Made by a program: the position numbers and the translations under genes. From a virus, in IMG/VR virus record IMGVR_UViG_3300029911_000461: 16,350 nucleotides of DNA. One strand, written 5' to 3'. The notes below the pieces were generated by a model. It searched no databases. It was not told where the DNA came from and saw only the letters and a list, made by a program, of their open reading frames with translations. Shown piece by piece: positions 6,864-8,261 of this stretch (the first letter of the stretch is position 1; each line of letters starts with the position of its first letter).

Positions 6864-7184
6864 ATGAGCGCGAGTAAGTGGGCACAGTGCCCACGATGCA
6901 CAATAAACAACGAGAAGGAAGCTGATAAAAAGGACAGGGAGGCTCTCCTTTCCTACGGAAAAGTCACCCCAGAGCGGTACCTTGCTCAGCTTACGGAGGC
7001 CGCAAAGTACAGGGCTGACTTGCGCTCCGAAGACCAGTGTACGCTCCGGGAAGACTACACGCTGGGCACGCTTATCTACAAAGAATTCAATGGCCAGATA
7101 GCGTTTTACGTGCGATATTCCTCTCGCTGCGACCGATGCGGCTGGAAATTTACGTTTACGCACGATGAAGAGCTAAAATTGTAG
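6864..7184 (+). CDS. Small zinc-ribbon protein, 106 aa (CPRC...CDRCG)
   Basis: SD AGGGGGA at 6853-6859 before ATG 6864. Two CxxC pairs ~90 residues apart. Ends just inside the -35 region of the next promoter. Confidence 0.65.
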   Translation: MSASKWAQCPRCTINNEKEADKKDREALLSYGKVTPERYLAQLTEAAKYRADLRSEDQCTLREDYTLGTLIYKEFNGQIAFYVRYSSRCDRCGWKFTFTHDEELKL

Positions 7185-7213
7185 ACAAATCTGGTACTTC
7201 CCCGGTATACTGT
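7182..7213 (+). promoter_or_regulatory. Promoter, family member: TAGACA (7182-7187), 18 nt spacer, CCCCGGTATACTGTAA with -10 TATACT at 7206-7211
   Basis: Conserved block plus identical -35. Located 25 nt upstream of SD AAGGAGAAA and ATG 7236 (Ku). Confidence 0.6.
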
Positions 7214-7235
7214 AAACATAAGGAGAAACACCAAA

Positions 7236-8222
7236 ATGGCAAAGGCAAAGAACACATCGAAGACCGAAACCCCCGTCGCGGCTCCCGCGAAGCCTAGTGT
7301 CGCCGACCTCTCCAGCAAGTTGAACAACCTTCTCCACCCGAAGGTTGAGTTCGCCGATGTGAACGCCGCCGCCCCCGAGAAGGTTGGCTGTGGCCGTTCG
7401 ACTTGGTCGGGTAAGCTGGTCGTCATCGAGGGCGCGAATGGCCTGACCGTCCCCGTCAAGACCTACAAGGTCATTGAGGACTCCGAGAAGTTCAAGACCA
7501 ACATGATTCACCAGTGCAACCACGAAGCCTCTGAAGAGGCTCCCGTGTACGGACAGCTTAAGCAGGGTGCGATGAAGTGTGAGGCGTGCGAGGCGATTGT
7601 CGAGCGTGCCCAGTCCCTGAAGGGCATGAAGGATGACGACGGCAAGTTTTTCGTCATCACTGACGACGAGAAGAAGGGCTGCATGGTTCTGGCCGACAAG
7701 GTCATGACCGTTGAGAAGCTGGTTCCGGCGACGGAAGTTGACCCCCTGTACTTCGAAGCTGCCGAGTACCTCGGAGCCGATGGTGGTTCGATTGTCGAAC
7801 GCGCCCTCGCCGTCTTCCGCGAGATGCTGGTGAGCACGGGTCAGGTGGCTGTTGCTCAGACCGCTCAGAGGGGGCGTGAACAGACTGTCATCATCCGCCC
7901 TTTGAAGGTTGGTCTGGCGGTTCACTTCGTGTACTTCGAACACGAAATCCGCATCTTCGACAAGGTTGCCCCGGTTGTCCTGAGCGAGGACGAGAAGACT
8001 CTGGCGAAGCAGCTTGGCGAGGCGATGTCTGACAAGTTCGTCTCCTCGGACTACAACGACAAGTTCTCGATTCGCTTCCGCAACCTGCTGACCGCCAAGA
8101 AGGCTGGCGTGGCCGCTCCTGAAGTCAAGAAGCAGGACGCCACCGCAGTGGTCACGGTTGACCTGATGGCCGCTTTGAAGGCTTCACTGGCCAACAAGAA
8201 GGCTGCAAAGGCTGGTAAGTAA
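7236..8222 (+). CDS. ku: Ku-family DNA-end-binding protein (bacterial or phage type), 328 aa, with a ~50-aa N-terminal extension and a Lys-rich C-terminal tail
   Basis: Core aligns to bacterial Ku (e.g. B. subtilis YkoV). STWSGKL..GLTVPVKTY matches MWKGSISFGLVNIPIKLY. GKFFVITDDE matches GKYVVLTDED. EVDPLYFEAAEYLGADGGS..ALAVFREMLVSTGQVAVAQ matches EIDPIYFNRSYFVGPGDNG..YTLLREALRSTGKIGIAN. The tail ...KASLANKKAAKAGK resembles mycobacterial Ku tails. Confidence 0.9.
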   Translation: MAKAKNTSKTETPVAAPAKPSVADLSSKLNNLLHPKVEFADVNAAAPEKVGCGRSTWSGKLVVIEGANGLTVPVKTYKVIEDSEKFKTNMIHQCNHEASEEAPVYGQLKQGAMKCEACEAIVERAQSLKGMKDDDGKFFVITDDEKKGCMVLADKVMTVEKLVPATEVDPLYFEAAEYLGADGGSIVERALAVFREMLVSTGQVAVAQTAQRGREQTVIIRPLKVGLAVHFVYFEHEIRIFDKVAPVVLSEDEKTLAKQLGEAMSDKFVSSDYNDKFSIRFRNLLTAKKAGVAAPEVKKQDATAVVTVDLMAALKASLANKKAAKAGK

Positions 8223-8229
8223 CGACATC

Positions 8230-8261
8230 GTGGGGGTAGGCTAGCACCCCGCCCCCACTTT
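8230..8261 (+). terminator. Probable terminator hairpin after ku
   Basis: Stem GTGGGGG (8230-8236) pairs with CCCCCAC (8252-8258) around a 15-nt loop, followed by TTT. The U-tract is short, hence lower confidence. Confidence 0.45.

Follow-up and report, generated by a model that had tools for sequence, protein, structure and literature searches.

The mycobacteriophages Omega (gp206) and Corndog (gp87), of clusters J and O, each carry a solitary gene, without an adjacent ligase, for a full-length bacterial-type Ku of PHROG 4873, and its product has been proposed to join ends or to circularise the genome of the phage. Systems of this type have very short (4-nt) cohesive ends, use non-homologous end joining (NHEJ) for circularisation and depend on the host ligase LigD; in the account of Pitcher 2006 that PMC4351075 gives, circularisation via host LigD is the role that has been studied for actinophage Ku. 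The viral Ku genes catalogued so far, including that of Streptomyces phage BillNye, are all from actinophages (PMC11936186). The subject of this study is the Ku gene of IMG/VR virus record IMGVR_UViG_3300029911_000461, a 16,350-nt stretch of phage DNA that was analysed whole and is called the window below. Like the Omega and Corndog genes it is solitary, belongs to PHROG 4873 and has a proposed role in end joining or circularisation, but its product is only 26-28% identical to theirs, with a 54-residue N-terminal extension and a longer HxCxH...CxxC loop, and its phage is not an actinophage, carries rIIA/rIIB, a homologue of the major vault protein (MVP) and a tRNA island, and possesses an ATP-dependent DNA ligase of its own. 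Phage Ku being already known, the gene is a modest variation on it in the kind of phage, the N-terminal extension, the longer loop and the phage ligase.

Two further systems invite comparison. The Gam protein of phage Mu likewise belongs to the Ku superfamily and binds DNA ends, and is a much shorter, truncated relative lacking the C-terminal motif of bacterial Ku. According to Bhattacharyya 2018, as cited in bioRxiv 10.1101/2020.04.14.041137, Gam protects ends from RecBCD and can support joining by the host ligase. In the Ku-LigD NHEJ of M. tuberculosis and B. subtilis, Ku has the same core fold and minimal C-terminal helix motif as the window protein, and the genome also encodes an ATP-dependent ligase, as does that of the window phage. 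The bacterial Ku ring binds and bridges ends, its C-terminal helix is released on DNA binding, and the minimal C-terminal region of either protein suffices to stimulate ligation by LigD (PMC9638933; PMC12658125).

The Ku coding sequence occupies positions 7236..8222 (+) as an uninterrupted open reading frame (ORF) with an ATG start, specifying 328 residues plus a stop. The product, a single-domain protein, matches PF02735 (Pfam Ku) over residues 69-245 with 74.2 bits (cutoff 25; E 1.7e-20); this is its sole Pfam family at E<=1, and neither a vWA nor a SAP domain, as in eukaryotic Ku70/80, is matched at the same threshold. It also matches PHROG 4873, 'Ku-like DNA end binding' (2.4e-29), and the NCBIfam model Ku_bact (TIGR02772, E 4.3e-39), of which it covers positions 12-259 of 259 with a score of 134.5 bits, just below the equivalog cutoff of 150. 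Judged by these profiles, the phage protein is a divergent member of Ku_bact. The solved B. subtilis and M. tuberculosis Ku proteins were matched by sequence at E 1e-13 to 1e-14 over residues 70-322, and the M. tuberculosis alignment takes in the C-terminal DLLAKLEAS motif. An AlphaFold2 monomer model, with a predicted local distance difference test (pLDDT) value of 79 overall and >90 across much of the core, was superposed on the same two solved proteins, giving target-normalised Foldseek template modelling (TM) scores of 0.76-0.79 against 9vnq and 0.79 against 9i91. The beta-barrel/bridge core comprises residues 55-300 (7398..8135, +), its Pfam part being nucleotides 7440-7970.

Profile matches and model together identify the ORF at 7236-8222 as a full-length bacterial-type Ku. 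A first-pass annotation, made from the letters of the window, had claimed a complete bacterial-type core rather than a Gam-like truncation and had proposed a hidden Markov model (HMM) search with PF02735 as the check; the match and the TM scores given above bear this out. A truncated Ku of the Mu Gam type was rejected, since no Gam family is matched at E<=1 in Pfam, the protein is of full length and the C-terminal motif is kept. On sequence grounds, the phage Ku would be expected to be a ring-shaped homodimer through which the ends of double-stranded DNA pass.

The 'minimal C-terminal' helix motif, VDLMAALKASL, lies at 8157..8189 (+; residues 308-318), falls within a modelled helix of residues 310-326 and aligns with DLLAKLEAS of M. 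tuberculosis Ku. Across 52 Ku proteins D309 and L314 are invariant, and L310, M311, A312, A313, K315, S317 and L318 nearly so. It is followed by a short basic tail, ANKKAAKAGK (8190..8219, +; residues 319-328), with four Lys among its ten residues and an isoelectric point (pI) of 10.5. The basic tail at this place is roughly 30-40 residues long in four aligned cellular relatives (P0008, P0009, P0013 and P0025), and that of M. tuberculosis Ku is short, as in the phage protein; the 'mycobacterial-style' Lys-rich tail of the first-pass annotation was thus an overstatement. Compared with the Ku of bacterial NHEJ, the window protein has a basic C-terminal extension of 10 residues only and an added N-terminal one. 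Within the core, a loop H92-x-C94-x-H96...C115-x-x-C118 (7509..7589, +) aligns with HxxH...CxxC of M. tuberculosis Ku and is a possible zinc site, judging from these residues. The loop is 9-18 residues longer in the phage clade, and model pLDDT there is low (61-76).

The N-terminal extension (7236..7397, +; residues 1-54) is basic and Ala/Pro-rich, with seven Lys and one Arg and a pI of 9.4. Its limit was set by the core start R54-x-T-W57, within an R-x-x-W-x-G sequence at residues 54-59, because cellular Ku proteins begin at that sequence. The start codon is backed by the geometry of the promoter and Shine-Dalgarno sequence and by a conserved MAKAK beginning, the next Met being M90. The model predicts disorder for residues 1-21, a helix at 22-33 and coil up to 54, so the annotated low-complexity extension of about 50 residues is real, at 54, and is not purely of low complexity. 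A like extension, with MAKAK..., a helical stretch and P-x-E-K, is present in all seven of the closest database relatives (33-90% identity) and absent from every cellular Ku examined; matches in cellular genomes begin at residues 42-122. On these alignments, the extension defines a phage-only Ku clade. Searched alone against 1.84 billion representatives, it returned only itself and two repetitive proteins, with no other homologue, which is uninformative. The possibility that its helix (ADLSSKLNNLL) duplicates the C-terminal DLMAALKASL was tested against shuffled controls with a position-specific scoring matrix derived from cellular Ku proteins, and was rejected (p = 0.21 for the window protein; significant in one of seven clade members).

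The P-x-E-K element, which in this protein is A-P-E-K at residues 46-49 (window 7371-7382), stands about six residues before the Ku core in the phage clade and is conserved in six of the seven members. Prohead proteases of large myophages cleave at A/S/G-x-E. The extension might then be a capsid-targeting propeptide, cleaved at P-x-E|K from a Ku that is packaged and injected and whose mature form guards the entering ends; the placement of the motif would suit this, as would the near identity of residues 17-55 between two clade members that are about 90% identical overall. The motif is short, however, no virion gene is adjacent, and the promoter belongs to a sigma70-like class common to rIIA, not to a late class, all of which makes a packaged Ku very improbable.

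An ATP-dependent DNA ligase of 261 residues is encoded beyond the window, at positions 19066-19851 (+) of contig L020 (window-equivalent 23560-24345). The known DNA of this phage consists of partial metagenomic contigs of at most 36 kb, and on them the ligase gene follows Ku at a distance of 15.3 kb, 7.2 kb of it beyond the end of the window, with a leftward tail-fibre module between the two. The ligase domain PF01068 is matched at 38 bits against a threshold of 26.2, PHROG 114 is also matched, and the predicted fold is a nucleotidyltransferase plus OB domain. Motifs I (K-F-N-G-E-R), III (D-V-E-L), IV (E-G-V-V-I-K), V (F-K-L-K-F) and VI (R-K-R-N-D-K) can all be recognised, and in 34 members of the family the catalytic residues do not vary. 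In motif I, K-F-N-G has N where most ligases have D, and only K29 and G32 of this motif are invariant in the family. A single-sequence phmmer search of the ligase against the PDB gave nothing significant, and the family profile and structure model were needed.

As to the type of ligase, neither the polymerase nor the phosphoesterase domain of LigD is present in the 261 residues. The equivalog for the LigD ligase domain, TIGR02779, scores 36.5 bits against a cutoff of 227.75, with relatives at 54-111 bits, and this NHEJ model is the best NCBIfam match for most family members tested; the family profile matches Lig1-type and archaeal ligases as well as or better than LigD. Identity to the minimal ATP-dependent ligases of Chlorella virus and T7 and to a stand-alone LigD ligase domain is in all cases <20%. 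The family was found only in metagenomic records, several of them contigs of 156-431 kb with phage genes.

Within the window, no ligase was detected by Pfam and PHROGS scans of the called genes or by the ligase HMM on six-frame ORFs of at least 70 residues. Among the called genes no polymerase or nuclease family was matched in the same scans, no phosphoesterase domain was found in the window, and the 10 kb upstream of it gave no match to the ligase HMM. The first-pass annotation had seen no ligase gene, which is true of the window and of the absence of LigD beside Ku, and false of the phage. The consequence drawn from it, that a phage without a ligase may use Ku with a host ligase or simply for end protection, is not supported, the 261-residue enzyme being encoded on the same phage contig. 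A LigD immediately outside the window, which it had named as the observation that would overturn its view, has a counterpart here in spirit only, the ligase being neither adjacent nor a multidomain LigD. A conventional Ku-LigD operon was rejected for the same reasons: the nearest ligase is 15 kb away and ligase-only.

Ku and ligase have promoters of one class. The Ku gene is preceded by the sigma70-like sequence TAGACA-N18-TATACT (7182..7211, +; -35 at 7182-7187, -10 at 7206-7211), which agrees with the consensus at 10 of 12 positions and is the joint best such match in the window. Promoter-like matches occur across the window at chance frequency (10 found, 9.0 expected), so the case for this one rests on the repetition of its class. 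Siblings precede rIIA (TAGCCA-N18-TATACT, 3072..3101, +) and a gene for a 241-residue protein (TAGACA-N17-TATACT, 12918..12946, +), and outside the window the ligase has TAGACA-N18-TATACT at L020:18894-18923. The strict form, TAG(A/C)CA-N17/18-TATACT, has only these four copies in about 34 kb of the phage. The rIIA, 241-residue and Ku promoters also have related spacers ending in CCCGG and stand 20-24 nt from the ATG, and like hexamers (TAGCCA/TATCCA, N18, TATACT/TATATT) precede Ku in relatives L026, L027 and L070. The annotated placing of Ku behind one of a set of conserved phage promoters is upheld by this recurrence. Since the class is that of rIIA and the ligase, Ku is probably made early, from a promoter of the type used by host RNA polymerase.

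Downstream of the Ku promoter, a Shine-Dalgarno sequence, AAGGAG (7220..7225, +), lies 10 nt before the ATG, and the leader containing GGAGAAAC followed by ATG recurs in L027. In L026 (1680-1766) and L070 (3970-4055) the -10 element TATACT is 6 nt from the Ku ATG and there is no Shine-Dalgarno sequence, which suggests leaderless Ku mRNAs in these relatives. A 20-codon ORF before the ligase gene similarly begins 6 nt after the -10 and has the look of a leaderless mini-ORF (MDNPEFDFTFQQNPVRETVR). The -35 hexamer of the Ku promoter shares its first three bases with the TAG stop of a 106-residue ORF at 6864-7184 (+), whose product has two CxxC pairs (CPRC...CDRC) resembling a zinc ribbon and no family match; this gene is not beside Ku in the relatives.

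Behind the Ku gene, a GC-rich hairpin, GUGGGGGU...GCCCCCAC, at 8230..8258 (+) is followed by only UUUC and is a candidate terminator or RNA-end stabiliser. Its folding energy is -18.4 kcal/mol (z -1.65), and a terminator scan of the window did not call it; the hairpin of the annotated 'own terminator' is accordingly present, and its terminating function is less well marked. Stronger hairpins stand at the matching place behind Ku in L026 (z -3.4) and in L070 (z -3.5, with UUUU). The arrangement of Ku as a self-contained cassette of promoter, gene and hairpin is well supported by these comparisons, and it is plausible that the hairpin terminates transcription and that the unit is monocistronic.

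Ku and the ligase family occur on one contig and one strand, 9-15 kb apart, in three lineages, the Ku proteins of which are only 37-41% identical to that of the window, and the ligase accompanies Ku in every lineage represented by enough DNA. The combination is not unique among viruses, since IMG/VR loci with distant Ku genes (L032, L036 and L040) show a ligase-HMM match near Ku. A scan of IMG/VR with the Ku alignment found only such distant loci, at 26-32% identity, and no member of the phage clade was among its matches.

The reading favoured here, which we regard as evenly balanced between right and wrong, is that the phage possesses an autonomous module for binding, protecting and joining DNA ends. 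It is preferred because the ring-core and C-terminal elements of bacterial Ku are all kept in the phage protein, early expression is probable and the ligase stands behind a like promoter. Early in infection Ku would load on free ends of phage DNA, either those of the injected genome itself or those left where host nucleases have cut. It would shield these ends from exonucleases and hold two of them together, and sealing by the phage ligase would be promoted through the C-terminal helix of Ku, perhaps also through the N-terminal extension. Co-residence and the shared promoter type suggest that the two proteins may be coupled, physically or functionally.

Several observations weigh against such a module. 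The ligase is not adjacent to Ku and is without the polymerase and phosphoesterase domains of LigD, and in M. tuberculosis it is both the ligase and the polymerase domain of LigD that bind Ku directly (PMC9638933). The ligase family matched 46 database clusters (about 38 at >=41% identity), against seven for the Ku clade, and on a 265-kb contig the ligase has DnaG and PolA genes in its neighbourhood and the 10 kb upstream contain no Ku. On ligase-bearing contigs of 156 and 413 kb, the 10-kb flank that was read reaches back to the MVP gene or slightly beyond it. Because its family outnumbers the Ku clade and occurs near DnaG and PolA without a nearby Ku, the 261-residue enzyme is probably the general ligase of the phage, present with or without Ku. 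In nine relatives anchored on the MVP gene, for which some 10 kb upstream could be read (about 10 kb each), the syntenic place is not occupied by Ku. Finally, the indications of early timing are confined to the sigma70-like promoter and the rII neighbourhood.

Most of the related MVP-bearing loci being without Ku at the syntenic position, Ku is, by this comparison, an accessory gene among related phages. The distribution is most simply explained if the ligase belongs to the core enzymes of these phages and Ku is an accessory that has resided for a long time in one sub-lineage. Long residence is indicated by the single N-extended clade and by the G+C content at third codon positions (GC3), which at 0.76 for Ku is the highest in the window and near the 0.71 of rIIA/rIIB. 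A recent horizontal acquisition of Ku was rejected on the same ground, this closeness leaving no convincing anomaly.

If the ligase serves replication only, Ku might recruit host LigD, LigC or LigA to circularise the injected genome. This is the only role of a phage Ku studied experimentally, at least as PMC4351075 reports Pitcher 2006, and the window protein shares a PHROG with the Omega and Corndog proteins, retains the C-terminal motif that acts on LigD and is accompanied by a ligase resembling a general one. Metagenome-assembled genomes of Acidobacteriota, several named for peat, bog or palsa, supply nearly all of the closest cellular Ku proteins (29-33% identity), which hints that this phylum is both the host group and the ancient source of the gene; the probable hosts would thus have NHEJ genes. 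Neither Omega nor Corndog, however, encodes a ligase, and the window phage does, behind a Ku-type promoter; retained specificity for host LigD is not evident at <=33% identity to any cellular Ku; and a ligase, which stands within 4-460 bp of ku at many cellular loci, is absent from the 10 kb around many of the nearest acidobacterial Ku genes. Dependence on a host ligase therefore appears unlikely.

The position of the gene bears on another explanation, in which Ku is purely an end protector, like Mu Gam or T4 gp2, capping ends against exonucleases of the RecBCD/AddAB type and joining nothing. In three lineages Ku immediately follows rIIA/rIIB, an early region directed against the host, and its accessory distribution is that of many counter-defence genes; Ku rings bind ends by construction, and both termini of this one are basic. 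Against this, the protein is a full-length Ku that keeps the motif stimulating ligation, it matches no Gam family, and the ligase is co-resident wherever enough DNA is available, so that protection without joining appears improbable. The phage Ku might alternatively interfere with the NHEJ of the host, by competing with or poisoning host Ku/LigD, whose error-prone joining can harm phage cos ends; for one mycobacteriophage, restriction by host NHEJ has been reported, the cos sites being imperfectly repaired (PMC12848934). The window protein keeps every core feature of Ku, a ligase is present and nothing points to a dominant-negative design, and interference of this kind is the least credible of the explanations.

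The joining module is to be preferred over these, and a bolder form of it, which we consider rather doubtful, can be stated. In this form, large to jumbo soil or peat phages would practise self-sufficient two-protein end joining, by a Ku with an N-terminal adaptor arm and a minimal ligase that are switched on together early, resealing DNA cut by restriction or CRISPR systems or circularising the genome, as a counter-defence independent of host NHEJ. Ku here represents a diversified phage-only clade in large rII-bearing phages, the window phage supplies its own ligase, and acidobacterial hosts are suggested for an uncultivated group of large phages. If Ku and ligase do cooperate, a Ku ring and a 261-residue ligase would be the smallest known end-joining kit, offering a way to ask how Ku stimulates a bare ligase domain and whether phages survive nuclease-based defences by end joining. 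If the ligase is merely replicative and Ku only caps ends, the finding would extend the known host range of phage Ku in an ordinary way.

That Ku is encoded by a phage follows from its neighbours, rIIA, rIIB and tail-fibre genes among them, and from a tRNA island close by. The window as a whole had no megablast match among 50,697 phage records. Its gene set includes rIIA, rIIB, an R2K-clade ATP-grasp protein, a PTH2-like hydrolase and an MVP homologue of 819 residues, and the flanks, taken from identical metagenomic contigs, add the tRNA island, an ArgRS-like gene, HNH endonucleases and collagen-like tail fibres. Phage-clade Ku genes were found together with rIIA/rIIB and the MVP homologue on metagenomic contigs. 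Contigs bearing the related Ku P0005 measure 100-310 kb and those bearing the ligase family 265-431 kb, and the source is a large, probably jumbo, uncultivated phage of soil or peat.

The MVP homologue is encoded at 10129-12588 (+) and matches MVP_shoulder (3.5e-26) and Vault_3 (1e-9). In four lineages its gene follows Ku at a distance of 2-3 kb, and relatives were found at thirty-nine metagenomic loci (54-82% identity), most without a nearby Ku. The only report of phage MVPs is a 2023 preprint on gut phages (10.1101/2023.11.10.566534). Of the two R2K-clade ATP-grasp genes in the phage (R2K_3, 6e-18), one is at 8647-9471 (+) and the other at L015:5792-6637; the PTH2-like peptidyl-tRNA hydrolase is encoded at 9570-9998. 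The upstream flank (L015:565-7510) holds an island of eight tRNA genes, and an ArgRS-like protein with a DALR domain is encoded at L015:1893-2966. Together, the ATP-grasp, PTH2, tRNA and ArgRS-like genes look like a translation-related set typical of very large phages.

The rIIA homologue (3106-5532, +) contains a zinc-finger insert of the CxxCxGxG type at residues ~96-129 (CKQCHGVG...CPDCDGTG), which matches DnaJ_CXXCXGXG and Anti-TRAP weakly (E about 0.005). The product of the gene at 2357-3049 (+) ends in a UvrB/UvrC 'UVR' motif (3.1e-7), and the annotation of its counterpart on a sister contig (L002:9-611) gives Helicase_C and UvrB domains; the window may thus carry only part of a UvrB-like helicase gene, or a variant of one. 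A tail-fibre-like gene (PHROG 7049), following a 65-residue ORF, occupies 14596-16350 (+) and runs off the window end. It specifies 860 residues at L019:10251-12833 and 570 residues at L020:10102-11814, and on L021 (10251-12155) the contig ends inside it after 635 residues. The three contigs otherwise encode identical proteins, which suggests strain-level variation in the length of a receptor-binding protein.

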